The notes under the pieces: generated by a model
Seen by the model: the letters and a program-made list of their open reading frames with translations, nothing else
The model's database searches: none
Told to the model about the DNA's origin: nothing
From: Phoronis australis
Lineage: Eukaryota; Animalia; Phoronida
NCBI GenBank assembly: GCA_002633005.1
Contig: NMRA01000357.1
Location: 407,075-471,074, forward strand
DNA length: 64,000 nucleotides
Direction: 5' to 3'
Shown: positions 592 to 54,383 of the stretch, one piece after another
Numbering within the stretch: position 1 is the first letter of the stretch
Layout: each line of letters starts with the position of its first letter
Program-made: the position numbers and the translations under genes

Positions 592-3500
592 AAAAATCGT
601 GCGATGTGCAGTCTTTTCCTGTCCAAGAAAATTTTGATATGACAAAGGTAATGCTTCAAACTTGAAAATTCGGGGGTTTACATGGATGAACCTAAGTAAA
701 TTACAGGTTCATACTAGAAAAATATGTCTTTAAATAGTATCGACAGACATGAAGCAAAAGGGCGAAAGCTTATGGCACACACTTTCGCTTAAAATTTTCA
801 AAACATCAAGATTGGTTGTTGCCACCCTGTGAAGCGTACATGTACTTGCAGATAAATCTATCGAAAACCAATCAGATGTCTTAGCCGGTTGACCCAGCGG
901 AACCAGAAGTCAGCTAAGTGAACCAAATGTGAAGCACCGACCATTTCTCTAATCTTCCCCTCTGACTCTGGAGATGCAAAAGGCTTAGATTCGCGTTTTT
1001 TGTGGTGATGGCTTTCACCTTTTTGTGGACGCTTTTGTTGTGGCCTGCGACAGAGATAAAAAAGGACCCCCGCCACTAGACCTTTTGCAGATTTCCATAG
1101 CAGACAAATTGGAGAAAATCACCATCTTGTTACATGATCTCGCACATGATCCATAGCCCTCGAAGTGGAAAACCAGCATGAAATCTTACAAATCTTAGGC
1201 AAATTCCCTGCCTGTGCAGTAGCAGGTTAGCACCATGACACCACGAGATGTGAGGCAAAAGTGCACCTTGTTTCTTATCTCTCCAAAGGTATATCTAAGA
1301 CTCGGGTCCTTCAACGTAAGAGTTAAACAATGTTATTTGTGGAGGATGGCTTATCCAAAAACCCGGTGTCAAAGACATGAAGTCTCAGGTCACAGTTATT
1401 ATTTGAGGACCGAGCAAGGTTATCCGCTCTCGCGTCCAACCGGACGCCAGCAAATCAAAAACATCTACCTATCTTTTCAATGAACGTGAAATCTGATAAT
1501 TTTATTACTTTAGATTACAGATGTTGGCAAGTGGTTCATAGTCCAGGAGGGAAATGTGACTGGGAAATGGAGGGCTGATCACGTTGTTTTCACCCCTGAT
1601 GAAAATGGAGAGATTCAGGTGTCATTCCACGATGGGGGAATAACAAACACAAAGCACGCTGTGAAAATATCAAGAGACAAACATAGGTAGATACTGCATG
1701 AAGCTAAACAGAAACATGTGGACTTGTATTATCTATGCAAAGTGCGTCATCGATTTATCAAGTACACAATTCATCAATTGCTTAAACGATGACTTGGTTT
1801 AAGACGGTTTCCGACTTTAACATGATACTAAACTATGTTTTGTTCAAGTTTACCCTCAACATATTGCCACTTGTTATTGTGCAATCTCTACGACACTTTT
1901 TCGTTGTGTCTTGCAGAGTGATCTCGCATGTCGTTCGAGGTAGTTGTTTTCAACAGCCCTCTATTCGTTTGGCCATATAAAGCAATAGCCAAGCTTGGAC
2001 ATTACATAGTCTGTATGCAGTTTCTATTGTCATCGAACCTTTTGAAAGTTTTTTATCGTACGTAACAGAGCAGTGTTTTGTTTCAAAGGGTCAAATAATC
2101 GTACTAATCTTTCTAAAAACACTACAGTCTGCAAATCCAGTATTCCGAAGTGGTTCATGTCATGAAATTAAATGTGCAAATGTGAGATGTGTGTATGTGC
2201 AATGATGTAGGGTGATAGTGAAGTACAACGTGCATGAGAGGCAATAATGTTTAACATGAGAGGAGGGCTCTCTGGAAGTGGCATCTACGTGTAGTGGTAC
2301 TAATGGAGGGATACAAAATGGTATTGGGAATGGCGATGGTGTGATGGACAATTTTATAGAATATAGAAAGTTTGCAAAAGTAGCGGCGGATTTCGAGGGG
2401 TTTGCCAGTTTAATGATTCGGTCATTTCAGTGAGGAGGTATAGTGTTATCTATTGATGGTCAATCTTGCAACTTGTCGTTGCACCATTTCAATCCTACGA
2501 GTCAGTGCTTTTGTGTGAGGTGACCATACTCTTGAACAGTAACCTAGTTTTGGTCGGACTAGAACGGCATAAGCTATTTCCTTGAGTAGTGTAACGAATG
2601 TGTCTTCTACGACAGTCAATGTCTTTACTGGCCGAACCAGCGATTATAACAATAAGTGAATTCCAGAGGAGATTGTTGGAAATAGTAATGCCAACATTTT
2701 AAGCCTCAGACAGAGGTGACAGGTGTGGGCAATGGAGAAAATGGTCTTGGAGGATGGGTTTCTTTTCCGATGCACGTGACGCATATTTCACTTTGATGCA
2801 TTGAACTACAAACCGAACACTGATTCTCAATCATCAAATTTGTTAAAAAACGGTTGGAGTGAGAAGCAGGGTCGTCTTGGGTCTGGATGAAGCGATAAAG
2901 TGTACAGTCTTCTGCAATGAGGGGATAATGTACATGTAAGATATCTTTTGAGGCAGGTCATTGATAAAGAGGAGGAAGATGACTGGTCCATAGTTAGATC
3001 CCTGAGCAGCCCCACAGGGCACAGGGGGGGTTGTCAGATGAGTTGTCCTCTAACAAAAGACACTGAATTACATTGTTGAGAAAGGAGGCATCCCAGTTCT
3101 TTGTGAGGACGCCAACCACAAAGAAACCATTTGTGTTAACAAGTCCAGAGCGAGATATTTTGTAGAAAGCTTTACTATCATACTTAGTGACGTCATCGAA
3201 CTGCATGCCTGAGTTTATATTGAGAAGGAGGTCGTTTGCGAAAGTGAGGAGTTGTGACTTACATGAAATGTTTGGTTTCAAGATGTTTCATACATGGTGA
3301 CTCACTGTGACGTGTTCAAGAATCTTGCAGCATGTACATGTAAGGAATATTGGGCTGTAACTTTTGCTTTGCGTTTTTTTTTCCTTTTTTGAAGACTGGG
3401 GCGAGGTTGGCGTGGTGCCAATCCGCTAGAACCACACCAGATAATAGTTAGGCATTAAAGATATCAGTCAGTAAGGGAGCTATTGGGTTTGATTGTTCCC

Positions 3501-6151
3501 GGAGAACAAAGTGTTTGGACTTCGGGGTTTGTGTGGGTTCTGAATGGGAAGTTGTTTTTCAACTTCATTGATATCATGTGCGCACCCAGGAGGCAAAAAG
3601 GTCCACCCCAGAGAAACAAAAAGTCCCAGGGAAACGAGACGAAAGTCTACAAAAAGGCGCAGACACACAGTTCACAGTACTGAAGATGGTACCCCGTTTT
3701 TTGTTTAGTCATCCAACTTTTGTGTTAACAAAATGTCCACTTGGTCAGAATTCGACTCCCCCCAAACTAAAAGCTGGCTGCGCGCATGGATATCAATGGA
3801 GTGGTTTTATAAGGACTTTCATGTAGGTCTGGAGTTATAGAGCTGTCTTCAGTAGTGAAGACTGAGCAAGATTGATTATTGGAAATTTTTGCTCTGTCGG
3901 ATGGCTAGGTGGAAAGTCGGCCGTTGTTTTGCAACGGGGCCAACTGAGAAGGCTCTCGCCTGGGACTCTTAAAAAATGTAAAAAGACACTTGGGATCGCT
4001 CTTATCTTAAGGGTTGATAATGCTATTGGCGTATTTTCATTTGCTGCTAAGGTTTTGTACTTAATGGGATACTATGTGAGTACCATTGTTTGGGTTGTAA
4101 TTTATTTTGTTTTGGCTCCAGTTACATGTTCATACATACACGTAGGTCTGCATAATACGACGAATAGACAATTAGCTTACCAAGGGGTAAGTCGCCGGAA
4201 GATCTCTTTGGTCACTATTTTAGGCACATCGATGGAAACATTAAAGAAGATTCTCAGCCAGGGGATTATGTGTACATGGACAAGTATCACTCTAGTAAGT
4301 TGACGCGTGTAGACTCGCAGCTAGCACAGGCCTTAACGGCATAATGAACGATCCTGAGCGTCGCAAGGGGGCGCCAGGGGTACAATCATGATTCCAGAAA
4401 AAGAAGTGCATGCGGCAAGCCCCTGTATTAACACTTTAGGGTAACACGAGAGGAAGCCCGGTTTCATTATTCTGACCCTGAATAACCTTACGCCGTGTTA
4501 TGAAACTGGTCGAAACTCGCGTTAGGTTATTTTGAACAATTTTCATGCTCACTACGTAGCAAATTCCAATCCTATACATTCGCTTATGCATTACCATCAA
4601 TACGTAAACTAGGTCATCCGTCAGGTTCTCTGCATAAACTAGGTCGGCGCTTCAAACAGTCCGCCTGCATCAAGCTCAAGGAAGATTTTAGTAGCCCAAA
4701 AATACCACAAGTTCAAAGATATTCAATTAAAAAGGAAAGACGAAACATAACTCTGAAGATACCTGGCCAATATCAAGGGTCACCGCTTGTAAGCAAGTCA
4801 AGGCGATCCTTATCTCGCACTACCAGTCGACTAGTTTTCCCTAATGCAACAGAAAATTCTCATACACTTACTTAACTTGTGATGACTCCTTTCAATTTGA
4901 AACCACCCACAATGCACTAAAACAAACTAATATTAAGTGCAAAACCTTTTTATACTCTCAAATGATTATTCTGAAAATAGTTGCATTGGTTTCCTTACTT
5001 TTAAAGTGTATGCCTTCGACACCGATAGGCTCAAGCGTTAATTTACAGCTGAACGCCGTAGGCCGTGCTCAGTAATCAAAATGGTACATATAAGATAAAC
5101 AGTTAGAATTATGCTGGTGTGAAATTTGTCAGTGATTTAACCAAAAACTTCGAATTAGCTCGACCCACTGATGATAGTATGTGGAATTCAAATACACACA
5201 CAACTGAATGTTAGTCATTTTTCAACCCTTTTTGGTCACCACTTTTCTCAATGGATTTCAAAGAATATATGCGTATAATGTTGATTATACTCCCATCTAT
5301 AGGCGCTATCGGAAATCCCGTCAACCTCTTCGAAGCATTGGCCGTTCAAAGTACGGCACTTCCCGGACCTCAGAGGGCTTTGATTGGATGTTTTGCGTGC
5401 AAAAGCGATTGAACTTTGACCATCACATTGACACCATACAATTCCGCTCAGTGTTCATAAAGTTTTGATGCGAATTTGGTTAAGGCCTTGTGAATGACAT
5501 TTTGCTATCGGCAAATGAGGTCGGGTCAACAAGCAACACGTACATAAGGTCATTTTCTGTGAAGGGAGGAATTTTCACGCATGCGCAAATAGCTGGTTTA
5601 TGGATTTCTGGCAATTGTTTAATTTACAGAAAATGGTGATGATAATACATTAATGCAGTTTTAAGCAAACGGGTGACGTCTGTGTTTGTTTCGATGAAGA
5701 TGCAAAAATAAATACGATAATTATTTCGCATTACATGAAAGCTGTACTCATATTTAGTTAAATGTTTTCATCTAAATCAAATATTTGGGTGCGTCCACCA
5801 AAAGAATGCACACATTACAAACAGTGAACGGAGTATTGTACAGACGGTCATGATCTGGTAGTTAAGAAGTGGGTCCTTTTGTTTTCAAACACATGAATGC
5901 ACCCAAGTCAGAAACCACTTTTCCTAACATATTTTCTTTTATTTTTGCAGCGCAAATGCGATTCATCTGGACGGACTACGAAACAGCGTTGGTGTACGAG
6001 AAATTGTTGTCGGAAAAGTCAGGCGAACACAAGATCGGTAGTGCGGCCGTTTATTGGATAAGCAAGATTACGGAACTGTCAAACGGAAGCATTCATGCAA
6101 TTGAAGGGCCCACGGAAGAATTGTACAAATTCCTTTGCATTGACGACAAAG
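592..6151 (+). CDS. Lipocalin module 1 (exons 592-647, 1514-1686, 4224-4294, 5951-6151)
   Basis: KSCDVQSFPVQENFDMTK|ITDVGKWFIVQEGNVTGKWRADHVVF...|HIDGNIKEDSQPGDYVYMDKYHS|QMRFIWTDYETALVYE...VYWISK...FLCIDDK. Has lipocalin SCR1 (NFD..GxW) and SCR2 (TDY) motifs; intron phases 0,2,1. Confidence 0.9.
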
Positions 6152-9100
6152 GTATGGAAAACACAATAAGAGGACCCAATATATATGCTATCTGACGCAC
6201 GATACCACCGAATGAAAGCTAGTTTGATCACGTTAGACATGCTCCACAAGGTTGTTAAACCGTGGAACACAATTTTGCCAAAATATTAATCTCGTACCTG
6301 TGGTGATTGCGAGGACTGAATGAAGCAAAATACAGCACCAGTTCCTAACCAAGTTATTTAATAAAAGAAATCGGCAGCATATGCAAAAATGACAACATTT
6401 TCCACTCATTTCGTACTCTCGACGCCATATTGTCGCTGAGTTATACTACCGTAAAATGATGTCGTGATTTGTGAAAAGATATAAACGACCTAATTTGTAC
6501 TTGAATGCCATAGGTTGATTTAGAAACGGAACCGACCCACGAGATCTTCATCTGACAGAACCGGAAACAAGCGCTTTGTAGCCAAAAATGGCATTCTTGT
6601 CGAAATTAAGTCAAGATTGTAAAGTAATGCTATTGCAACTTACCCAACTAACTGTTTATTTTAAAATGCATTGGATTTTTCGGGCAAGTTGTCACAATCT
6701 CTACGAAAGGCGTGGAGCAATACCTGTTGAGAATTTGTTTAACTGGAAGTGAAACGTGTTCTAGTCGAAAAGCAAGAAACAATCGTACACTGTATGTCGT
6801 TGTTGCGTCAACGTGAGGACTAGTTAAATGTGCTGATTTATAGGTAGCAATTGGTTACCCATTGCCTATATTGGGTTGAATGCATGCATTAGTTGTCCTC
6901 ATGTCGACGACACACGTGTTACCAATAAATCATAACGTAATCTGTAGCAGTATATGATACCAAATTTTCTATGTGTTTATTGAGACTCACCAGTGTCCTC
7001 CTTTACATTTGATCAGACACAGAATGCAACCCCAACGTGACGATGATACAAGAAAACTTTGACATCGAAAAGGTACGAGAGTTCTCGGGAGAGTGTCTTT
7101 GTTTTTAACGTATTAAGGTTTCATTCATACATGTACACATGGTAACATTTCGGAATCAGTGCTGCCTGCTCTCCCTGAAAAAGATGTTTTGACTAAAAAC
7201 TCCACAATGTGTTTAACAATTGGCTAAAACATATATCACTTCTACAGGGTGCGACCAGAAAGCAGGCCCTAAGTTAGAAAAAAATTCACTAAAAATTTCG
7301 TTGGATGTCTGCGTTGACTTCTTATGAGCTCCCAAATCAACCAGCACATCTTACAGTGCGCCTACAGCCAAATGACGTCACCGATGGTGATGGCACCTGA
7401 TGGCCATTTTGCGCACTTTAAGTACCTCGTAAGACGGCACATAGAATGCTCTTGTGGACTTTGGTTTATACTGCTAATACACTTTTTGATCACACTTCCT
7501 ATGTGATGTTTCATAGCAAACCCACATGTGAACCTGGTAGTACTCTGAAACATTGTAGCAGCAAAAATAGCCAACAATTCGGAAAATTACAGTATTTTGT
7601 TACATAAACCTGGAAGATCTCCACAAAGGATTTGTGATAAGTGTGAAGTACGATGTAGCAGCCAGAGAAAAAAGTCTTTCTTTAAATGGCGCTTTTCTAA
7701 TGCATCCATTTCTGTAAAAAAGGAGTTTGGAATTCCATACAAGTCGGAATATTGGATTTGGTTAAAGATGAATGTTTAACCTATCGATACCAATGTTTTA
7801 GTTTATGACGGGTGAAAACTGGTACATTGTCAAAGAAGAAGGCGTACATCGGGTGGGAAAATGGAAAGCTGACCATGTCTTATTTACCAGGAACGACGAA
7901 GGTCTGATAGGCATGTCCTTCCATGACGGCGGTCTTCTGTCAGACGATGACGTTGAGGAAAAGGAACACAGGTAAATAAGTAAACTCGACCTTGTACAGT
8001 TTTTTTTTCAATTCACTCTGATGAAGTACGTCATATCAGACAACCATGATTAAACAGCGAAATCTGGCAAGTAAGTTGGAGGCCAGGCTAAACAGCGTAT
8101 AGACGCAACAAACGCGTAAAACGCAAGATCACGAAATTACTCCAGACACAATGGTACGCATTAGAGCTGACCAAAATGGTCAAACTAGCGATTTTCACGA
8201 GTGACCAGCGTTTAAGGATTAGGTGCCAGTTGCCTTCGATGGCTTACTGTGCGCATGCCCAGAGAAAGAGAAAGAATACCAGAAAATGTGTCTCATGATT
8301 GATTCGTCTGAGTCGGATTGCGTCGTTGTAAAAGGACTGCATATTGCATGTATATAATCGAACCTAACTTCTAGACCTTCGCTGAATAATGGGTCCGTAT
8401 GTTGGCATTCAAAACACCTAGCATGGACATTGACCCTGACAGAAGGTCTTTGCCACGACAAGGGGACAGTGAATGAAGACCAGTCGTTCACTCGGTTGTT
8501 CTGAGCGACTAATTATGTACCTTTGAGTTAATCAGAGTGGAGTCCAGGGCATCTGTGGCTGGTTGCATGAAACAGTCCTAAGTAGGGACTAAACTAAGTT
8601 CCCTAAATCTACTGCGTATTTGTGGACTTGGGAAAACACTGTCTGATTGTCCTTTACTATGCTGTTTTAATTTCATCACTATAAAAATTTTTGGCTTTGA
8701 TGCAAATCGAGAGTGAACCTCGACCTTGAATTCTCAATATTATTGAAAATGCATAGGGATCTTTACGTGCAACATTCTTAACTCGTACGTACAAACATCG
8801 TCACCATTTTCCTGTTTCCAGACATATAGATGGACATTTTGCTGTCGGGCAACAGCCAGGAGACTACCACTACGTTGACAGTACACACTCAAGTAAGGTT
8901 TCATTGCTGTTGCACAACCTAACTTGTTCGTTTCTTCCAACACTCGTGCATGAAGTTGTGTTACCCTTTAACAGCCTTTGGTACTACATTCAGAAATGAA
9001 CCTACTACCAACCGCCTTCTTCAAAAGTCAACCTGAGAGTCTGAGATTATTCCTTATCGGTATTAATACGCTTGTTTAGCAGGGTCTACGCACATGTCCG

Positions 9101-12100
9101 TGTAGAATTTCATTTCAAACGCTTATATTCTGGTTCCTCTTGGAATATTCTCAGTACTTCGTTTCTCTGCCGTGCCGTAGCGACTAAACTGAATGCCGCT
9201 TTGTACTGTTTTTCAGCTCACATGCGATTCGTCTGGACCGATTACTCGAGCGCTTTAGTTTACGAGCAGCTCTTGTCTGAGGCAAATGGAAGTCGTCTAT
9301 CGGCTAACGTTGGAGACAGCGCCGTCTATCATCTGAGTAAGACGTTGCGGGTACCCGAGGAGGAAAGTAAAACTGTCGGGGAGGTCAAAGATCAACTGTA
9401 CCCTCAACTTTGCTTGAAGCGTCCTCGTACGTTATTTTTTAGATCATTCGCGTGCGTTACTCGTTTTGATTATTTATTGGAATACGCATAACAACTGTGG
9501 GAATTATGAAGGCACCATTTCAAAGCAATTGTTCATAATTTCTCTTACTTGCAAGCTTTCACTTCATTTTCACATCGTTCTTTAAAAAAGCAATTGAAGC
9601 TTCTCTTAACTTTGATACCATTTTGATCTGCTCTAATGGCTTCTGTCGAATTTTTAATAACACACCCCTAAAATACTTTAATTGACGCTGGAATGGATTA
9701 TGTCTCTTGATCACAAAATACCATTAAGCCAAACATAAATTAGATTTTTTTTCAGAAAAGAGCAACGGGCATCAGGTACCCACCCTTGAGACGTCCAACA
9801 CAGGTAAGGTAGTGTTCAATACTGTCTTTTTTCATTAGATATGTACACGTAAATGCACGCATAAAATTAGTCTTTAAAATGTTTTGGCAACAAGAGATGC
9901 TTCGCATGCATATATCAAAAGCACTTCGGAAGGGACTAAAGCCTTACCAGGTGCAATTTTCGGTACAACTTGTGTATTTGAATTTTAGGAAAATGCAATG
10001 CGTCGAATCAGGTAGCGGGCAATTTCACCATGCATAAGGTAAGTTACCTGCGTACAATTGAACTGTGAACATTTCAGAGCTGAGATTGATTGCGTCAAAG
10101 CAGTGTAATCGGTTTTACGATCGACGCAATTTTGGGACTATTGCAGATGTGATAAACTCTTTGAAGTTTGAGTTATATTTGACCAGAGCTAATAGCTACA
10201 GAATACTTTGTGTTTGAGCGATTTTAAACAAATCCCCATTTTACGCCATTTTCTGCCAGCCATTCACTGAAATCGAGGCACCTGACCTTTGCTAGTTGAG
10301 TACACTTCAAGTACTCTTTCATTTTTCTAGAAGGGTTTACTGTGTTTATCCGCCTGCATAGTGTTGAACTGGAACCGCTGGTTTTATGAATTTGATTCCG
10401 TGTTAGGGCTGATCTCAAACAAATGCTTTTCTCGCCGATAAAACCACTATAAGCAGGGGTTGCCTGCTGTATGATGTGACATGGTAATGCTACGAATAAA
10501 GAAGTCATTGACACAATCCACTGTTATTGCTTGTAACAAGGATTGGCCCAAGGAAAACATGTATGCAGTAGTTGAGACCGTTGGACGAATTTCCGTTCTA
10601 GTGATACAGGGCTCCATTTCATGAAAGTTTAATCACAAATTTCATTGTTGGCGTGATGACAGCAGTTTTGTTATGGTGTTAGTTAAGACTAAAATAGTTT
10701 TGTGAAATGGGGACCAGGTTGCACAGTACGTAAGATCTTACTGAAAAGACGGTCTATTTAGTCATGTATCTAATAAGCTATAAATTTTAGTTCAATAAGG
10801 TACATGTACGTATTTGCTGAAGGTTGAGATAAATATAATTTTGAATTTTATCTATATGCTCTAAACCGGGTCTCTTGCCAATGTCTATTACAAACATTTA
10901 GCAGTGATAACAAAACAACGGCATCAACAACATGGCCTGATGTTGTTGATATAAATGTTTAACGTGAAACCTCAAAAAATCTTACAATTTTCTAAATTAC
11001 CATTTCCTCTTTTTGTGAGTTTTTGAATAGTTTTTGATAACCCTTCACACAAAAGTAGAATAATTTACAAACAATTACTAGCTTTGAAGACGCTGCATAA
11101 TTTTCTGAAAGTTCCATATAGTCTAGACGCATTTCCTGAAAAGAGCCCTATATAAGATTCTAGAAGCACTTTTAGTAAAAGTTGGGAACAAGACTTTTTC
11201 ACACAATCAAGGTATGGCGAACTCAACTAACCCTGTTCCCAAGCCGAATTTTGCATTTTTTTGACCATCTAATTTGCATAAACAAAATGGCGGCCAAATT
11301 GTCAAGTTCAGATGTATTTTTGTAATAGAAATCACCAGATACCATTTAAAATGGTGAAATGTCTCACCTGTACACTTCTTATAAGCACTTCTTGAGCAAT
11401 ACATCACTTATGAATACTGAAAATGCAACTCTGAAAACTAATTATGCAAATTAGGTGCCGCCATTACCATACAATGTAATTTGCGTCTTAAGTTTGTGTT
11501 CCTGCAGGCTAACTTGAAAAATGAGTTGTTTATACTTATATTTTCATGGTCAAAAAACATGCTAAAGACATTTTTGGAGCAATTTATTTCATATTTATTG
11601 GGTTATAGATGTATACTTACAGAATGGGGAAAAAATAGTCATTAATCTGCAATGCTCGTCAAGCAAGGTGTCACTAGTTTGATGGAATATAAGGACAAAT
11701 GTTCACACTATCCCGTTATCTTCCATTCATAAAAAATCAATATAGTTATTGTTATTGAAGACATTAAATTCTCAGTTGCATGAATCATTTTCAGGCCTGC
11801 TGAACACAATTTTAGCATTCACTTTTTGGTACTTTTTAACATGCCTAAAGCCAGGCAAATCAAACTGTTTGCATACAAGGAACATGCTGGTGGCATGAGC
11901 ATAATGATATGCATTGTCTGCTGTTGCGCTGTTTCTGGCATGCACACAATACCATCTCCAGGCAGCTGTCTGGGATAGAACTCTGTGTCATCAGTATGGG
12001 CTGCAAGCATAAGTTTGTGTGTCCCTCCCATATCAGAGGGTGCTGGGAGCTTAGGTATGGAGGACTTCTGGGTTCACGGGGTTGGAGAATAGTAAATGGC

Positions 12101-30100: not shown

Positions 30101-33100
30101 GTAAGTCATGCGTGTTCCAAGGTGAACTTATGACGACATGTTTGAAATAATCTCGGGTCTACGTGACCTAATGTATTAGCAGCCCCTTCCCCCATCCATC
30201 CTACAAACACGACCAACAAAATAACACAGCCGGCATGTCCTTTTAAAGTGCCCGCTGTGAACAATAAAAAAAATTGTGGAAGTCCCTTTAGCATATCGTA
30301 GACCCGCCAGTGTCACAGTAGAGATCTGCTATACTGTATGTAGTCTACTATTACAAAACTCAAGTCTGAAGACTGGTAAGACGATTTCGGATGTTACGAA
30401 TGTTACACTGCAGGCTATTCAAGTCGATACGTCGCGGTGCTATTTACTGTCCTGAGCATAGTCTCGAGGACAATTGAACTGCAAATACTTTGAAAATTTA
30501 GAAAGCACCGCTCGTCTGAGTAAAGACTAGGTTTAGACCAATTTTTTCCGCTAAGAGGTCTGGTCTGCACGCCACCTTTTGGCCACATCACGTGACCTAA
30601 TCAACATATTCATGTAAGGGGTCTGGTCTACACTGTAGCTGTGGCCACATCACATGACCTAATTAACACATTCAGGCACGAGCTCTAAATCAAAATTTAT
30701 TTTTTTTATTCGACACCGATTCATTGCCGTTTTAACTACCAAACTGGCGCCAACAGTGATGCGTGAATGTTGCCACAGATTAATAGATAGTTTCACCGAA
30801 TTCCCTGACAATTATTGCAGCACATTTCCGCGTTGTGTGGACTGACTACAACATAGCGTTGGTGTATGAGCGCCTGATCAGCTCACAGGATGGAATAGGA
30901 CGTCCTGGCGACTCAAATGCTTACTTCATTCACAAGCATCGCGAGTTATCGGAAGAAGAAAACGTCAATATGGAAGTCGTGTGGTCCAGCATTGTGAGCA
31001 ATCTCTGCCTTACTAGCCAAAAATATAAGGCTCCTAAAGGTATAAAATACATTATGTCAGTCTAGGTGTCCTGGGGAAATTTTGGTGTTACGCTCCCACT
31101 GGTCGAAAAGGGTTTAGTCAAACAAGTCAATGACAGACTAGAAATAATTTACTTCAAAAACTAGAAGTAATGTATACATTCTTAGTGGCTAGGCTATCCA
31201 CTTTCGTTCAAAAGGTATTCAATAATATTTTTGTCTGAAATAGTGGTGTGGAGCGCAAGACCAACTTTGTTAAGTAACTTGCCATAAACAGATCCCTGGG
31301 CTCAGTTGTTGATTGATACAGTACTTGAATACTGCACACGCCAGTCCCCAAGAACTGTTAATAATATGACTCAAATTACAGTTGATCAAGAATTCGAGTA
31401 GTCTTGATGAAAAGCGCAGCTGGGTTATTTTAGTGGGGGCCAGGAGGGGTGCAGAAAACGAAAGTCGCGAAGTTTTCTGCCTTTTGGTCAATCTTTAATT
31501 GCAAACCAGTATAAAGACATAAGACGGTTGTATGAATTACATTGTCCAAGTTCCACAAATCAAAAATGTTAACAAAGACGACATGCGTAGCAGCGCAAAC
31601 ATGAATAGTGGTTATTTTACTATTCAGAAAGCTCCGAAATTTCAAAGTCGCATATCGCAAGGTTCTTGCACCTGTGACGTGTACACAAGGATTGGTGAAT
31701 TCAATAATCACCACACTGTGTCTGCGATTCAATAACAGGCCAGAGCTGCTACAATTTTGGTTGCTGGAACTGAAACACCTGTTGACATACAGCTTTTCCA
31801 AGGGGACCGTTCCTGCCTCGATGACGAATCATCAAAATGTCAGACCGAAATCACGTTTCTCAGGGCCCTAATATGCTAGAAGACAAGGCCTCGGGGTCTT
31901 TGGGCTTCCACTTTAGTCGCATTTTTTTCACCGCGTAGTCCCATTAATTGACTTTAGAAACTTGTTCATGACTGTACATGTACATGTATGTAACCCTAAT
32001 TCCGTATGCACGTAACACTTTGAACTGTCATGTTGCAATCTAAGCAGGACTATTGCCAGGTTTACGTATAATTCTGACGCTTTTTAGCTTGAGAAAATAT
32101 GGTTACAAGGGATAAAACAAGCATTAGGTCCAGCCAAGGGAAATAAAATCAGCATTTATAACGATCTTTGAGAGAACAAAATGTTGAAGTCTAACAACTT
32201 GAAAACGAGGCTACTTTAAAGAATGTGTTTCTTGACAGTTCCATGTTTGTTTATCATGAATTTATTAACATCACGAACACAAAAACGCAACTGTAAAATT
32301 TTGAATTTTGAATTAAAATCTAAATAAATTAGTGCTGGAAAATTGTGCTCGTCAAATTCTCTAGGGCATTCTAGAAGAAAAGGAAACGTTCCTGTTTCCA
32401 AGTACGTGCTTCAAAAAATAATTGGACGCCTCCAACAAAAATGACCCGAGCTTCCAAAGCGTGTGTGCGACAATGAGACTCCTGTACACAATAGGTGTGC
32501 GAAGATATTTTCATTGCTATTTGTGCCTTTCGTTTCATCTCGGATTTTGTTTGAAAGGGCCTAAAACGTCATGTCTGAAATTCTAAAACTTAAATGGCGT
32601 TAAGTAACAACTCAGAAACATTAGAGTGTCCCGTTCATGTAACGTCTTGCCTAACCACACCTTTCCCCTTCTCAACGCTCCCTCTTGAGGTAAAGAGTCT
32701 GGGGCCCTCACTACAGGTCTGTCACAATTCTCACTTCCTATTCGCCACATTTGAAAGGAACGCCGAAAGAGTTATAGAGTGGTTACAATTTCAGTAGGCA
32801 ACACCACGTGGGTCCGATATTTTAGTTTAATTCCATCTATTCAGTCAGGGTAAATTCTTGCTGTTTTTAATATTGTTTCCGTAATACATATAAATTATTA
32901 CATGTTCTTAGTCGGTATCCCCCGCAATCTAAAGCCCGAGTGTATGTTGGAGAATTATCGCCCGAGGGGCTAGTATATAGCTTACTACACATTCTATCAC
33001 CCTAAGCTTCGACCGTGAAAATATCGTCTGCTAAAGTAGGTTACCCCACTGCAGAATGCTGAATGTTAACCAAATCCCCTTTTGTCCACTGACGTCATAT

Positions 33101-36100
33101 GCATGCTGGCACCCTCCAAGGGAGGTTGGGAGACTTTGCACTGGTAGCCTGCCCTTGTAGAATCTGCAGTTTATTTACACAACTGGTAACTGGACTCTTG
33201 AGGGTGATGACTGACATCATTTGTATCAAACAAAGATACTTAGTCCGGTCCCTTAGCAGCCAAAAACCCCAAAACATTTACACCCCGGATTAAAGCACCA
33301 AATTTGGTACACAGATACTTTGGGACACGCTGAATCTCATGGGGGTCGGTTGCCCGAAATTTGAGGTCAAGGTCAAGGTCAAATCAAGGTCAAAGGTCAT
33401 GTGGGTAATTTTTTTGAAATGGCTTCAGACGAAGTATCTGTTTCATTACTGTTTCAGGTGATAAGCAGGAGGCTTTATTTTTGGTTAAAATTAATGTTAA
33501 TAACTTGTAAAAATAAGTTGAAAGTAAAAAAGTAATTTTCCAGACACTTAAGATGGTAATTATCCTAATTAATAGAGCATATACATTTTCAATGAAAAAT
33601 AAGTCTATTTGTTTTCTCTGGCTGAGAAAAACTGTCAAACTAGTATGAATATGCATTAAATCAACTCTAAAATGGTTTACCTTTAACAGAAGTTCATTTT
33701 TAAATGTTTTTGTTACAATATTTATGGTTAATTATGTAACAAATCGTCTCCGTAATTAAAGGAAATCGGACATCTTGCTAAATTTTCAAATAACAATTGC
33801 TGAAACTTTTATCATCATTTTTAATTTGATCATAGCTGAAGGTAACTTTGTTAATTAATGTGTTTACATTTTAGTTTGAACTTGATTGTCACATAAACTA
33901 AACCAATTAAAGTAATTTAGGTCATTGATGGTTTCCAGTAGAATGAAATAAAAAAGTCAGGTTTTACTTGGTGTATCACAATAAGGTGAAGCCCTTGTTG
34001 CACTATACTTTAAAACAGGTCCAGGCATAATGATTGTCTTGAGGAACATGTCCATTTTTAAGGTTTGTGTCCATCCAGTTAGTTGTGTTGACAAATTATG
34101 TAACAAGTGAAGCTGACCCTTGCTCATCCAGACAACAGTACCCAAGCAGGTGACCTCAGGTCTGAGACTCGCATGATGTTGACCTCCAGTTCATTGCTCT
34201 TGTACTATTATATTTTGATTGAGGTTTACTAATTTAGGTATGTACTTTTTTGAGTAACTATGTACATAAAAATATCCTAAATTGATTTAACTTATTGGAG
34301 ATAATCATATCGCGTTTGGTGGTGATAGACCGACCCAAAAAACCTCGCCTCATTTTCGAATAGGTGGAAATTCCTGAGAAAACCACAAACCTTTGAGTAA
34401 AATGCGATTTCACGCCTATACACATTAACTCTATTCCGATACATTTGCTTGTATGCCAGGCCACGGACAGTGCTGTTCTTGAATGGAATTATTTACGGAT
34501 TTTTAGGCAAACCTTTGGCAAATGCGACTCGACTTAGAATGAACAAAAACATACCGTTTTAGTCGACATAACTTTCAATATTTTAATATGAAAAACAAAA
34601 TAACCGAATGCTCGGCCGCATTCAACTCACAGGCAGCAGACGTCTTATCACTGCCGTAAATCATGAGAAGCTCAAAAGTAAGTTTTACACAACCTCTGCA
34701 TACTAAGTATCGTGGCCATTCGCAGTAGGCCCCATTACCCGCGGACGCAGGACTCAGTTCAGACACTCAACTGAGCAAAAATTATTTATCATGCCGCAAC
34801 CTCAGAATTCACTTTGTAACATACCACAAAAGCATTTTTCTTAATTCTTAGATTTTGAGGATTGACGAAAGTCACGATACATAGAATTATCCAAGTCTAT
34901 ATGTGACTCGTCTGATGTTACTTGGTCCGTACTGATAGGCTAAATCAGTGGTTAACTCGGTTTACGAGTTCTCATGACCTCCACTGGGGGCGCCAGCATG
35001 CGTGTGACGTCAGTGGACAAAAGGGAATTTGGCCAACATTCACCATTCTGCACTGCTTACTGAGTACAGTGCCCAAGTCAAAGGATCCCGCCGACACGAT
35101 ACCCGCAAGTGAGAGAAAAGGAGAGACAAATTGGATTGAATTAATGTATGGTTTTTATAGCGTATACATGTAAGTGTCGGTACAATGCCCTTTGTTGAAC
35201 ATGTGATTATTGCGTGTGCTCAATTATAACTATTCTATTTTCGCGTTAGATGACGTCAGCGGCTGAGTGGTGCAGTTAAGTCTTGGGAAGCAGGTTCGAA
35301 ACCGGCCGCGGTTTCCCGCCAAAATGTTTTCTACTGTAACGCCGTTTAATAACTGAGTGGGTCATTACACTGTTGTATTGGCCATTCGAGGCTGGTATTG
35401 TGGTATAAAAACGTTTTTATACTCCGCTACACAAATCTCGTAATGTAAGAAGCCACATTAAAAAATCGACCTACCGTAATCGTCAGACCAGGTCGACTGG
35501 TCGGCCACAAGTTTTTACATTTCAACACCGAAGAGTCGCTAGGACTATGAGACAGTTTCCCTATCCTGTGCAGGTCCCTAAGCTGTACTTGTAGCCCTGA
35601 TCAATCGATAAACCGGGATCTGTTTACCACAAGATTACCCGAGGTGTTCCAGGTGCCTCAATGTTGTTAAATTGGGAGAAATGACAGAGCGATACATCAT
35701 TGCTTACGCCTTGTTACGTGGGGATAGTCATCTAGAACCTCATAGCATTAGGGTTGAGGAGATTGACAACGGCAAACTCTCCAGAAGAGGCGTAACTTTG
35801 CTTCGTGCTCAGTTCTTTTGAATAATATATTGTTTGAAGTAGGCGTCACCAGATGCCAAGTACTGCGCGTGTTGACTGTGACACGTGATACGGATAACTC
35901 AACTCCTTGCTATATATACCATGTATGGTTCACTTTCAGAAAAATGTGTTGTTAATCAGCGAGTGGCCCCAAACTTTGACATTCACAAGGTAAGACGTAG
36001 TGTATTCATTTCCCGGCCGCCCATGTTGGACATAAGACTATTAGATCCCAAAAATCATTATTGGTTATGGTCTCTCTCCCGACTAATGGTGACACCTGCG

Positions 36101-39100
36101 CTCACCAACTAAAAATAAAAAACGCCCGTCCGCCTCAGATTTGTTTGTTTTTTGTTCATAAAGCTGCAAAAACGTATTTAAGGAAGGATACGCAATGTTT
36201 GAAAAATCAAGAATTTGCTAAGCGATGAGTCAAGAAAGCAGAACCCGCATCATCTTTGTTGGTCTCAGTTGGATTTTCGTGTTTGAAAAAGGGCGCCTAA
36301 ATATTCCACCGCCTCGATTTTTAAAAATAGCAAGGACAAGAATCAACTATTTTTTGCTCTCCGACCACTAGAAACATTCTTCTATTCGTCGATATTTGAG
36401 TGTAAAACATTTTGATCTCAGCCCCATTTCCAAGGAATGACTGTGAAAACAATAAGTCACACATCTTGATCAACTTTGCAGAATATGTGCGCAATTGTCC
36501 GGCAAGAACTTTGTTGTTTTTTTGTGAAATCAGCACACAACAGGCTTAGACTGTTGATTTTGTTTACGATTATTGAAATTCTTATATGTCTGACATTAAT
36601 TCTAAATTTGAACTTCTAAACAACACTAAATATACATGTATCCAACACAGATTTCCAAATAGGGATCACTCAGTTTTTGTGCAGTGACACCCAGACAAGA
36701 AAACGTGAAACAATCATTGGACATTAATAGTATGGGAGTCTTCCCATTATTACTGAACTACGTACGACTATTTTTTTTGGTTTGATCACACTAAACTTTT
36801 TATTGCGGTGCCTAAATAAGTGAAGAAAGTTGGTTTTTTTATTTCACCCATATCTGTGTAAGAAATCTTCTTGTACAAGACTTTCGGCGACAGAAATCGC
36901 TGTCTATGACAGCCTTGTTTGAAATATAAATTGTTAACTTTCCTTTCGCGCGACAGAACGTAAAATTAATGTGTGTGCACGACCCAGAATTTTTAATTTG
37001 CAACTTAATAAATTTAGATGTTACGTTAATTTTAAAAACGAAGAAGACATGTCGTCAACAACAAATAATAAAAAAGAATTATATCTTGCGAACCCCAGCT
37101 CATGGGTGAGTAAGGTGCATTTGCATTTGCATTTGCTTTTGCAACTGCTTTTGCTTTTGCATACATTTACATTTAGGGCAAAGGAAACCCAAAAACATTT
37201 AAAGGATGGCGTAGGGTTGCACATATAATCCGCTTCTTCATTTTTCCTTAAGCTTTAAATCAAGATTTTGCACGTCTCACTTAAAGCTAATGGGCTCTGC
37301 TAGAAGAATTGTGCGTACGCTATTTCACAAACAGCTTATATGGGAAGATTTAAATAAAGCAAATGAGTTTTTGAATGTTCTAGTTCGTAGGGAAGTGGTA
37401 CATTGAACAAGAAACGCGCGTGCATGTAGGGAAATGGCGCGCAGATTACCTCGTCATCAAAGAAACAGAGCAAGGCGTTGGCATTGAATTTCACGGTGGA
37501 CCTTTTGATCAGGGACAGTAAGTATTTTGCTGATCGAATCCCAAAGTTAACCAAGATAGTTTTAGTAAATGATCACGTGAATTTACAAGTACGTTTCAAT
37601 ATTTCTGTTTGTGGTGTACACTGTACGTCCTCGGATTTGGGATGCGAGCAAAATGTGAATTCATTTAGATTGGTGCACATTTGTAATATTAGTTTTATGC
37701 ATTGGTTGTTCACACGTGACCAGAAACGAAGATTTGAATGTGTTCCCATAACTCAACATTACAACCTCTCCAAAACATCATTTTAGCTATGAACATTTTG
37801 ACAGCCATATACTCGCTCAGCCCTTATCTCACTCGCGTGATTTTGAGCAGTCTTGCGTGATATCCATTTTCTTGCAAGAAATCCGAACGCAGCCCAGCAC
37901 ACTCACACAGTCGGCTTTCACATGGTCAAGGCCCAATTTATACCCTAAACCATTTTCCCTGTAGCACTCCTCAGTCCCTGACTCCGGCATACTGTCACCC
38001 TTACCTTGGTAACAATCAATTGTTACCATGCATACATGTTAAAACTCACGGAGTCCAACTGGTAGCTAGTACTCTAAGTTTCGTGTCCATCAGGCAGTTG
38101 TAACCCTACCATGCGATTAATGTTCGAATCTTCAGTCCGACGCATTTTGAGTCTTGCGCTAGCGGACAAAATAATAAAATCTGGCCGGAATTAATTTAAC
38201 AACCGACACGTCAGCAAGGTTTGAAACGCCATGATTTGCAGAATGATGAATGAAAAAGTCACGTGCTCTCCTCTCGGGTATGTGTTCGTTTTTTGAAAAG
38301 AGCGAACAACGAATATATCCTGCACATATTCGATTTTCAAAAATGCAGACCAGTGTGCTTCTTAAACTACTAATTGAAAATTATTTGCAGTTATGTGAAA
38401 GGCAATTTAACTGAGCAGTCACAAGCAGTTTTCAAGTACTCAGACGCCTTGCATACAAGTAAGTAACATTACGAAGTACAAGCGACATTATGTGCAATGG
38501 CTGCTGGGTTTGTACCATATTAGGACTCGCTCCGTAAAACAATCCGTTTATTACCTCTTACAGGAACACTGTCGCTTCTTCGGGTGAAAACGCATCTTTG
38601 TGATCATTGTTGGCAAGGATAGACTTCTTGAGGTTATGAGCATTGAGCAGAACTATAACTCAACAACATTGTGTTTCGTGATTATACTACAAATCTCACA
38701 TTCTCGCCACCTACATGTATTCGTTGAAATCAAGCCCGGAGTTTTTACCAACTGAACACACTTTTACTGTTTGTTAAACATGATAAAACATGCCTTTGGC
38801 GGCATTTACAGTTCATGTTTGGATTGGGGCTAAGATCTGCCTGCAGAGCTATAGTCTGCCACCATGTGGATACCTTGTTCGATTCCTCGCTGAGTGATAT
38901 CTCAGAAATGTATTTTTCTTGCCCATAATGTCCCTTTGAAGGTACACGTTTGTTAAATTATATTTTCACTATTTCCAGCTCATTTCCGCGTCGTGTGGAC
39001 TACCAGTAACCTGACATTGATCTACGAAAGCCTCATAAGCTCTCATGATAGACTTGGTAGCCATGGGAATTCGGACGCCTACTTCCTTCATAGGCACCCG

Positions 39101-42100
39101 AAACTGTCGGCAAAAGAGCTTCAGTTGATGAACGAGTCATGGGTGGACATCATATCAATGTTTTGTTTAACTAAATACCAACACATTCCTAAGGAAGGTG
39201 AGCCAGGTGAAGGTCCCTGGACCTGTGCTACGATCAATTAATATAGTTAGCTTTTAAGTTTGAACTCAAACATTAACCTTGTCACCTCTGACAAGGCATA
39301 ACGAGAACTTTTGGAATGTATTGGAATTAACGTACCCCTGGGTGGAAAGTTCTAAAAAAATTTAAAATTTCCTGTACAGTCCACCGTATCATCACCATCA
39401 TTATGTCTGCATACAGCACCAGAATTACAGAAAGTGCATCATTCTAAATCACAGGGAGCGGTGAGTCAGCAAGCAGCGGTGATGGCAGCGGTGAAACCGG
39501 ACCCAGCTTTAGTAGTGGTGACGTCAGCAGTGGCGAGCTGGACAGTAGCGCATCTGTTGAAGGAAGTGGCGTCGGTAGCGGTGATGTGGGCAGTGGTAGC
39601 GTTCATAGACTGACAGGTAGGAATTTAAAATAGAACTTAGCAAAATTGGTTCTTATTCTGGTTCTTCCTCCCCACTTATTTGGATACCTGCGCTTACGGA
39701 CTAAAATCCTCCAATTCATCAATTTCTGATAAAGTCTTGTTTTTTGTCTGAAAATATGCAAAAAATCACGAAAACAGGGATCAGCTAGGTTTGCAACTCC
39801 ATGATTTGTCAATTAATAATTTAAAAATATCGAATACCGCGTGGGTCTTTTTACTATTAAAATATCACACCAATCGATTTTCCGAAAAGAAGAGAACAAA
39901 ACCACTTCTGCACCTTTCGGACTAACCCTGTGTTTTGCATAAAAACGGTTTCATCAGAATTAGCGCAACCTAACACTAGTTACAGTGTAACTAAAACGCT
40001 ACCTCACCATATTAAACAAGAGCAACACGGAGCGTTGAAATGCACCCACGAATGCACCGCTAACGCTGTGCTTCTAGAGGTGTTTATTTGGAACATAAAA
40101 ATGGCAACTGGAGGGCGCAAAATATGTCGAATCCATTCAAGAACTTGTATGTGTCATCAAAGCTATTAATCAATTTTCATGAAAATCCGTCAAGGAACTT
40201 TTGAGGAAACAGAGGAAAATGAAAAAATGAAATTGTCACCAAGAGGCACCAAAGTAGATAAAGCAGGAAAATAATCGACAGACTTCCTCTTGCCATTAGG
40301 AACATAAATGTCTCTTTCCACAACCATCCTTCGAGTAGTTTGATTGACAGAGGGGCAGACGGCAAATAACAAGACTCCAGAACAGTAAAAATGGCCACAA
40401 CATGGCGCAAAATGCCCCGAATTTTACCGAAAACCGGATGATAGCGTCACCTCATTAATAGATGCCTAACTGCCAAATTTTATCAAAATCTATTGGCGAC
40501 CCTTTAAGATAGAGAGGTAAACGTAAAAAATTAAATTGCTACTATGGGGCACACGGGTAGCCCGATCTGTCCGAAAGTCGCCATCCTCTGTTGTCAACTA
40601 CATATAAATACATTAGCAAAATTCAATAAAGATTCTATAGAGCATTTAGGAGATACAAACAAAACTGCCACCAGGAGGCGCCAAAGTATTCCAAGTCATC
40701 GGAAAAGCATCGTCAGCCGCCCTCTTCACAGTAAGAACATATATGCCAATTTTCAAATCATCCCTAGAGCGAAAACAGTAAAAATGGCCACTAGGTGGCG
40801 TAAAGTACCCCGAATACGTCCGAAAACGGGAGGATGGCATCATCTCGCTAATAGATGTGTAACTGCCAAGTTTTATGAAAATCCGTTGAGGACCTCCAAA
40901 TCTACAGAGGTAAGCGTAAAAATTAAAATTGCCACTAAGGGACACACCAGTTGTCGGAGAGGTTTGTTGTCATCAATTGCCACCTTCATGGGAACACATC
41001 TGCCAAATCTCATTACGATCTTGTGAGGGGTTTAGGAGATAAAGCCATGGGCTCAAAAACAAACAAAACTGCCACTAGGAGCCAACACAGTTGTCGAAGT
41101 CGACGGAAAATCACCTCAGTCGCCCTCTTCACCTTAAGAACATATATGCCCATTTTCAAATCATCCCTAGAGCGGTTTGCTTGATATAACGATAAACGCC
41201 AAAAACAGACTCGAAAACAGCAAAAATTGCCACTACGTGACGCAAAGTACCTCGAATCCGTCAGAAAACGGGAGGATGGAATCATCTCACTAATAGATAC
41301 CTATCTGCCAAAATTTATGAAAATCCGTTGAGGACATCCGAAGATACAGAGGTAAGCGTAAAAAGTTAAAATTGCCCCTGCGGGCTACACCGATTGTCCG
41401 AGAGGTCCGAAATCCGTCGTCGTCAGTCGTCAGCTTCACAGGAACACATCTGCCAAATCTCATCAACACCCTGTGAGGGGTTTAGGAGATACAGCTGCGG
41501 ACGCCGGACCACGGACGCCGGACGACGGACGCCCAGACAGAGATGGCGGAAACATGCAACCACATATAAATATGTGGGCGCATAAAAATAAATTATTTCA
41601 GTGGTTCGAAGTGTTCGTTATAGTGTTCATGAACTGGCGTCAAGCGATATAGTAACGCATGCCGACTTGCCAAATTTGTGAGAATTCTACACTTTCAGAG
41701 AATTCAGGAGACGACTCTACAATGGAGACGTGCACGACGCGACGAGACAGGATAAAAGAGAGAATCCAGAAGGGCTCTGAATCTGACACTGATGCGCTGG
41801 ACCAGAACGTCCCTGTCTGTGAACAGGACGGTAGTTACAGTGCCAAGCAGTGTAGAGGTTCTAGGTAAGAATCTTCAGCCGGTTCATGTTCGACAAATGT
41901 GACCACGCGTCCGCAAAGCTCCTTTATTGTGTTTGAAAGGAGAGTGGGGTTGGCGAAACAGATTATTTAAATTTCACGACGTAACAATGGAAAGATAAAC
42001 ATGTATAAAGTATCTGGTAAAGCATTTATCTCAAATTGGCATAAACTGCTTCACTTAGATGACATAACGAAGACAAAAGGGATCGCGTCACAATTGCTTC

Positions 42101-54277: not shown

Positions 54278-54383
54278 NNNNNNNNNNNNNNNNNNNNNNN
54301 NNNNNNNNNNNNNNNNNNNNNNNNNNNNNNNNNNNNNNNNNNNNNNNNNNNNNNNNNNNNNNNNNNNNNNNNNNNNNNNNNNN
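54278..54383. other. Assembly gap (N run) after a poly-G tract
   Basis: 106 Ns. Confidence 0.99.

Follow-up and report, generated by a model that had tools for sequence, protein, structure and literature searches.

What kind of ancestor gave rise to a gene that strings seven lipocalin modules along one chain, and how did a single unit become seven? The question is raised by a 64,000-nucleotide stretch of the genome of the phoronid Phoronis australis (GenBank assembly GCA_002633005.1, contig NMRA01000357.1, positions 407,075 to 471,074 of the forward strand), which was analyzed whole and is referred to here as the window. The original prediction, made from the letters of this stretch, had read the intron phases of the modules as support for an ApoD-like lipocalin gene that had become, in its entirety and unusually for its family, a mobile module flanked by phase-1 introns. 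The pattern that it described is correct, but the ancestor that it named is probably wrong and the rarity of the arrangement was overrated. We argue that the gene is a likely secreted polycalin whose modules probably descend, by old tandem duplication, from a streamlined, phase-1-flanked unit of the RBP4 type.

The gene model comprises 34 coding exons on the + strand (592-43292) in a single frame and yields an in-window product of 1357 amino acids (aa); the window begins within the gene, downstream of its 5' end and of any signal peptide. Seven four-exon modules (exons A to D) occupy 592-39197 (Table 1), with AG/GT ends throughout and one open frame, and DNA profiles run over the 64-kb window recover exactly seven A, seven B, seven C and seven D exons, the next-best match having an E value of 0.12. 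Exon A (50-56 nucleotides, nt) runs from phase 1 to 0, exon B (134-173 nt) from 0 to 2, exon C (68-71 nt) from 2 to 1, and exon D (201-219 nt) from 1 to 1. The same series of intron phases is found in all seven modules: 1 before exon A, 0 before the exon with the GxW motif, 2, 1 before the TDY strand, and 1 after exon D, the phase before A1 being deduced from the frame, since the preceding exon lies outside the window. This is the series originally described, with small corrections: GxW is present in 6/7 modules and is G-E-N-W in module 2, TDY is present in 5/7 and is TNY in module 4 and TTS in module 7, and a linker exon intervenes between modules 2 and 3. Phase-1 flanks with a length divisible by three, the definition of a class 1-1 unit, characterize all seven modules as well as the linker, the Ser-Gly exon and both thyroglobulin-1 domains. 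A candidate dead A exon near 25016 (25016-25060), which resembles the start of exon A5 and lies behind an AG, was rejected at an E value of 0.12.

Eleven of the 33 modelled joints (A1-B1 through B3-C3) are seen at the predicted bases in stranded RNA reads (X6 and X7) and X5 contigs, at depths in X6/X7 of 41-93 reads per joint; the 22 joints from C3-D3 onward rest on AG/GT splice sites, frame and homology. Modules 1-3 are thereby connected in RNA, and all seven share one frame. Run X8, from the same study as X6 and X7, has 0-4 reads per joint, so that expression likely depends on tissue or stage. The X5 contigs also contain a joint that runs backward from 7970 (end of exon B2) to 4224 (start of exon C1) at a depth of 142, and their C1-B2 joints reach a depth of 323, against 100-194 alongside. 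Four sources of this back-joint are conceivable: an allele carrying one more in-frame unit flanked by phase-2 introns, circularized RNA, an upstream module of similar sequence, or faulty assembly. Within the 8.7-kb A3-B3 intron, opposite-strand reads cover 14008-16675 to a depth of 80-100 in X8, where the gene is nearly silent; two + strand open reading frames (ORFs) in this interval have no Pfam match, and it is likely a repeat or transposon relic that is transcribed from elsewhere.

Table 1. Exons and domains of the polycalin gene in window coordinates
Feature	Exons	Strand	Content and support
Lipocalin module 1	A 592-647, B 1514-1686, C 4224-4294, D 5951-6151	+	167 aa, 2 Cys; all joints in RNA reads
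Lipocalin module 2	A 7017-7072, B 7802-7971, C 8822-8892, D 9217-9426	+	169 aa; all joints in RNA reads
Linker exon of 48 nt between modules 2 and 3, phase 1-1	9756-9803	+	both joints in RNA reads
Lipocalin module 3	A 9989-10038, B 18723-18856, C 19100-19167, D 20920-21138	+	157 aa; 8.7-kb A-B intron; RNA joints up to B3-C3
Lipocalin module 4	A 21362-21411, B 21676-21809, C 22729-22796, D 23648-23866	+	157 aa; splice sites, frame, homology
Lipocalin module 5	A 25565-25614, B 25738-25871, C 26090-26157, D 27406-27624	+	157 aa; splice sites, frame, homology
Lipocalin module 6	A 28886-28935, B 29229-29362, C 30033-30100, D 30821-31039	+	157 aa; splice sites, frame, homology
Lipocalin module 7	A 35940-35989, B 37384-37517, C 38391-38458, D 38979-39197	+	157 aa; splice sites, frame, homology
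Acidic Ser-Gly-rich exon, phase 1-1	39455-39616	+	9 SG and 11 D/E, counting the next 9 residues too
Thyroglobulin type-1 domain 1, phases 1-2-1	41699-41864, 42381-42463	+	Pfam PF00086, E 1.6e-6 and 0.041
Thyroglobulin type-1 domain 2, phase 1-1	42773-42982	+	Pfam PF00086, E 5.1e-9
Predicted last coding exon with stop codon	43252-43292	+	gene model

The lipocalin identity of the modules is established through their relatives. In addition to the two motifs already described, an R or K follows strand H in 7/7 modules, and the tryptophan of GxW lies at +5 from intron A (+7 in modules 1-2). Whole modules match by HHalign to abalone (98.7%), urchin (98.1%), Owenia (97.8%) and moth (95.6%) modules over 132-146 columns; real domains reach 35.7 bits, as against 4.1 for the best of 200 shuffles. 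Because these full-length profile matches are to Pfam-confirmed lipocalin arrays, the modules are recognized from their sequences as divergent lipocalins, as had been predicted. The model of a two-module urchin record forms two barrels matching RBP and ApoD (E 2e-11). An alternative is that the repeats belong to some other family, or that spurious pattern matches produced the chain of exons. In its favor, none of the 14 B or D exons, scanned singly, matched a Pfam lipocalin family, an alignment of the D exons had no PDB sequence match, and the structure predicted for the D exon (a helix and three strands, at pLDDT 78) resembles lipocalins weakly (E 0.5), its Z score of 4.4 being lower than the 5.0 of an unrelated match. 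A word-based search with the D-exon alignment returned 0 of 7407 candidates, and an ESM Atlas search with single window exons gave no usable match. Against this alternative stand the RNA joints, the full-length profile matches and the presence of all three kernel motifs, and we regard such an explanation as largely refuted and deserving of almost no credence.

A profile of the D exon found three matches among 1.84 billion representatives, all of them multi-lipocalin proteins: sea urchin LOC584238, with six modules, an abalone protein, also with six, and an Owenia protein of 5687 aa (CAH1786129) with about 30. A second abalone protein has 15 modules. The urchin and abalone proteins match Pfam Lipocalin/Lipocalin_2. 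When short relatives were sought, 3 of 494 candidates came back, with neither RBP4 nor ApoD among them. Tandem lipocalin arrays of 6 to about 30 modules thus occur, unnamed, in three marine phyla, and polycalins are a named family in Lepidoptera, so that the arrangement is less unusual for lipocalins than had been claimed. Related modules keep company with thyroglobulin and antistasin domains or with Ig and vWA domains, their flanking phases being inferred for the urchin alone. One abalone protein (P0011, 3267 aa) makes genuinely mosaic use of the module, its lipocalin modules being intermixed with Ig and vWA domains. In RefSeq the relatives are entered as uncharacterised proteins with lipocalin domains; the urchin protein appears in a table of the gonad proteome (PMC6669438), and the label rbp4b has already been given to an oyster gene (PMC10543319). 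Neither marine-invertebrate polycalins nor an RBP4-type clade among invertebrates is described in the literature searched, which lay mostly outside subscription journals. What was already known, then, is the tandem lipocalin array as a lepidopteran polycalin, the relatives as RefSeq entries, and the oyster rbp4b label.

The cysteines of these relatives, and their sequences as a whole, point to an ancestor other than ApoD. Six cysteine columns are found in 6/6 urchin modules, in 6/6 chosen abalone modules and in 3-4 of the 4 chosen Owenia modules, and five of these cysteines align with cysteines of RBP4, four in the abalone comparison and the post-helix one in the urchin comparison. The window modules keep two of the six (columns 1 and 5, in 7/7). 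Of the four cysteines of ApoD, those of strands B and G are absent from 7/7 window modules, which do have the post-helix cysteine, a residue found in none of the ApoD sequences compared by eye. PDB lipocalins were ranked for the urchin, abalone and moth proteins, that of Owenia being too long. The best match of Strongylocentrotus purpuratus is RBP (2e-18, versus 2e-11 for ApoD), as is that of Diadema (2e-17 versus 1e-6), and all RBP chains rank above ApoD for both urchins; the best match of abalone is also RBP, at the weak E values of 7.5e-8 and 0.0055. That this ranking does discriminate is indicated by the moth polycalin, for which sandercyanin and ApoD come first. These observations suggest that the repeated unit likely descends from an RBP4-type rather than an ApoD lipocalin, although the window gene itself, judged by its cysteines, is neither RBP4 by membership (2/6) nor ApoD.

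The positions of the introns agree with this assignment. Introns of RBP4 are reported after c.111, c.248 and c.355 in passages of PMC3506607, PMC3238285, PMC8006376 and PMC7432399, which, with an 18-aa signal, places them between R19 and F20, inside N65 (five residues before Cys70) and inside N101 (TDY-8). Three further sources (PMC10378304, PMC4532494 and PMC3695081) gave no usable intron positions. In the window, the spacing of intron A to the GxW tryptophan is exactly that of RBP4 in modules 3-7 (5/7) and two residues longer in modules 1-2; intron C lies at TDY-7 in 7/7 modules, one codon from its RBP4 counterpart; and intron B shares phase and loop with that of RBP4, being 0-1 codon off when anchored upstream. 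An exact match of intron B was dropped, as it depends on the anchor. The introns are, as predicted, at canonical lipocalin places, and the chance of such agreement in phase and position with RBP4 is 2e-7 to 2e-5, according to tolerance, the seven modules being counted once because they are duplicates. The bare string 0,2,1 has a chance of about 3% at background phase frequencies. Nor is it a signature of ApoD-like genes, as had been proposed: according to passages of PMC3184775 it also opens the pattern of ApoM, PTGDS and amphioxus genes and, as it is shared with RBP4 too, the string does not tell one lipocalin type from another.

Four urchin-like protein records bear on the end of the unit: P0029 and P0030 each contain one sharp block matching urchin modules with unrelated sequence on both sides, like ORFs reading through one exon, and P0028 and P0007 are truncated models with informative break points. 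Together these put intron B four codons upstream of the second cysteine and intron C at TDY-7; a fourth intron would follow the post-helix cysteine by 12 codons, directly before the sixth cysteine, and a possible fifth would lie 4-5 codons before the first cysteine of the next module. Phases 2, 1, 1 (or 2) and 1 are compatible with the residues found at these breaks, and the urchin-like D exon has 71 codons, versus 73 in the window. The 3' flank of window modules 3-7 lies at +11 from the post-helix cysteine, as compared with +12 in the urchin-like records. Because these ORFs break at the equivalent site within a six-cysteine domain, the 3' phase-1 flank is likely, on this comparison, an ancestral internal fourth intron rather than a new boundary intron. 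It follows that it was likely not a whole lipocalin gene that became the module, as originally proposed, but a unit that ends at this intron and lacks the exon bearing the sixth cysteine. The linker exon was considered as a remnant of that exon and rejected (p 0.04 in 2/12 comparisons, 0.12-1.0 in the others); it has no clear resemblance to urchin linker segments.

An origin from a single-domain gene of ApoD/Lazarillo type, which would have gained phase-1 introns at both ends in the window lineage and then multiplied, would fit the four coding exons of ApoD, equal in number to those of each module, and the existence of ApoD-like polycalins in moths; the long stem of the window clade, described below, leaves room for it by keeping the sister group unsettled. 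We consider it improbable in view of the cysteines, both those that the window modules lack and the post-helix one that they have, the lowest HHalign scores falling to the moth modules, and the agreement of the 3' flank with an internal break point of the urchin.

Several observations weigh against an RBP4-type origin. A fold search with the urchin protein does not separate RBP (2.0e-11) from ApoD (3.4e-11). Anchored downstream, intron B lies about six codons nearer strand D than in RBP4 or the urchin, and the 3' flank of modules 1-2 lies at +5 from the post-helix cysteine. The urchin introns are deduced from the four protein records, and the fourth could be of phase 2; the corresponding intron of RBP4, which we take to lie at c.568, before the last cysteine, was left unconfirmed by the literature search. 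The pairing of columns 1 and 5, by which each module is predicted to have one disulfide from its N-terminus to the post-helix strand, is presumed from RBP4. The tree of modules includes neither RBP4 nor ApoD sequences, joins the urchin modules to the ApoD-like modules of moths (96/89, a grouping flagged for possible attraction of long branches), and, like an earlier quick tree, does not show the six-cysteine modules as one clade. Likeness to RBP4 could reflect ancestral retention or convergence, the six cysteines and introns 0,2,1,1 being old traits of lipocalins in animals and the arrays a separate invertebrate clade without particular affinity to vertebrate RBP4; the account of tandem duplication would be unchanged. 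The tied fold search, the scattered six-cysteine modules and the weak abalone match would all be expected, and passages of PMC3184775 give 0,2,1,1 as the opening of the ApoM/PTGDS pattern. We nevertheless hold retention or convergence to be the less likely reading, given that five cysteines align with those of RBP4, that the PDB ranking separates both urchins from the moth polycalin, and that intron C is one codon from that of RBP4.

The tree was built from 38 chosen module rows, without long or partial Owenia and abalone modules, Haliotis rubra, and most moth modules; the earlier quick tree held 79 of 106 modules. In the 38-row tree all seven window modules fall within a single clade (100/100), whose two branches hold modules 1-2 and modules 3-7; it sits on a long stem that leaves its sister group unsettled. 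Copies are 32-61% identical, fourfold sites are near saturation, and no introns can be aligned between modules; on these grounds the array is an old, lineage-specific expansion that has probably been kept under selection. Amplification of a symmetric 1-1 unit in tandem, as originally proposed, agrees with this single clade and with the class 1-1 model of Patthy, in which, according to passages of PMC8001218, phase-1 symmetry permits the first duplication of a module. Symmetry is not needed for later duplications, because once two copies exist any equivalent pair of introns gives an in-frame duplication. The phases therefore permit the tandem expansion, as had been claimed, but do not alone explain it.

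Under the RBP4-type origin that we favor, the ancestor would have been a six-cysteine lipocalin with introns of phases 0, 2, 1 and 1 and a further phase-1 intron before its first cysteine, as the urchin relatives appear to have. Such a unit, with phase-1 introns before its first and last cysteines, would already have been a symmetric 1-1 module. In the window lineage, the short, symmetric 1-1 exon encoding the sixth cysteine would have disappeared, exon C would have been shortened at its 5' edge (68-71 nt, versus 38 codons in the urchin), losing the partner of this cysteine, and the cysteine pair of the G-H hairpin would have been lost. Intronic unequal crossing-over would then have produced seven copies, which purifying selection would have retained.

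Several known systems invite comparison. A polycalin, in the definition given in PMC10145054, has multiple lipocalin-like domains in one chain, and in this descriptive sense the window gene, as read from its sequence, is a polycalin outside the moth gene family. According to passages of the same source, lepidopteran polycalins (the Bombyx chlorophyllide A-binding protein and those of Plutella and Helicoverpa) likewise have many lipocalin domains and many exons. Their domains, in contrast, are ApoD- or sandercyanin-like with mostly 3-4 cysteines in the matched span, and they have no listed thyroglobulin domain, whereas the window gene has two; lepidopteran and window modules form separate clades (100/98 and 100/100), and the arrays are likely independent expansions. 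Urchin LOC584238 and its Lytechinus and Diadema counterparts resemble the window gene in having tandem lipocalins followed by thyroglobulin-1 and in the deduced places of their intron C and post-helix intron. They differ in that they carry six modules, each with six cysteines, together with an antistasin domain and a single thyroglobulin domain; no Ser-Gly tract could be seen in them, and their modules do not correspond one-to-one with those of the window. The abalone proteins XP_067662350 and XP_046567489, which give the best whole-module profile match, have six-cysteine-type modules (an array of 15) fused to Ig and vWA domains, and Owenia CAH1786129 has about 30 six-cysteine-type modules. 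Vertebrate RBP4 shares with the window modules phases 0, 2 and 1 in matching places, an exon B of similar length (137 nt, versus 134 nt) and aligned N-terminal and post-helix cysteines; unlike them, it is a single domain with, as described, three disulfides and an exon C of 107 nt. Conserved residues of the window modules are more polar than those of RBP4, and retinol or transthyretin binding is not implied.

What the protein does can be predicted in outline. Trp35, Asp38, His83, Glu101 and Tyr119 (module 6 numbering) are conserved and, if they face the pocket, as we assume from RBP4, suggest a ligand more polar than retinol. Bikunin carries a glycosaminoglycan chain, and the Ser-Gly exon of the window gene is likely a putative glycosaminoglycan attachment region. 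The protein, secreted and multivalent, would carry or sequester small ligands, glycosaminoglycan chains on the Ser-Gly tract would hold it in matrix or mucus, and the thyroglobulin domains would serve as cysteine-protease inhibitors or binding anchors. A tethered ligand carrier of this kind is the likely role by analogy with AMBP (alpha-1-microglobulin/bikunin), a lipocalin fused to a protease-inhibitor part according to passages of PMC8420045; AMBP has one lipocalin, and Kunitz rather than thyroglobulin domains, and the likeness is one of analogy, not homology. Secretion, ligand, glycan and inhibition are all predictions, which tempers this part of our proposal.

Elsewhere in the window, a 1.2-kb repeat has copies at 33241-34426 (in the D6-A7 intron) and 60905-62099 that are 94% identical and is likely a recent mobile element, and a degenerate tandem repeat of about 390 nt (71% identity) occupies 40266-41495, in the intron before the first thyroglobulin exon. 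No gene was recognised in 43293-64000, where the long ORFs tested (12 of 38 window-wide) had no Pfam match; an assembly gap of 106 N lies at 54278-54383.

The gene illustrates how a 1-1 module may be cut at a pre-existing internal intron, with both partners of a disulfide lost at exon edges. RBP4 is usually regarded as a vertebrate protein; its origin has been called unclear, at least in passages of PMC3184775, and it has been reported absent from annelids (PMC5821490). The six-cysteine, RBP4-matching arrays of urchins and abalone, together with the six-cysteine arrays of Owenia, offer a concrete candidate for a sister group of RBP4 that is testable in public genomes. Tentatively, and with rather more doubt than confidence, we suggest that RBP4-type lipocalins, with six cysteines and introns 0,2,1,1, may be ancestral to bilaterians and survive in echinoderms, molluscs and annelids as unnamed, exon-shuffled polycalins. 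Vertebrate RBP4 would then be a single-domain member or sister of this group; the window gene would be an offshoot with two cysteines, from which the trimming of exon edges removed a disulfide pair. A possible RBP4-type lineage that predates the vertebrates is the main lead to emerge from this locus.

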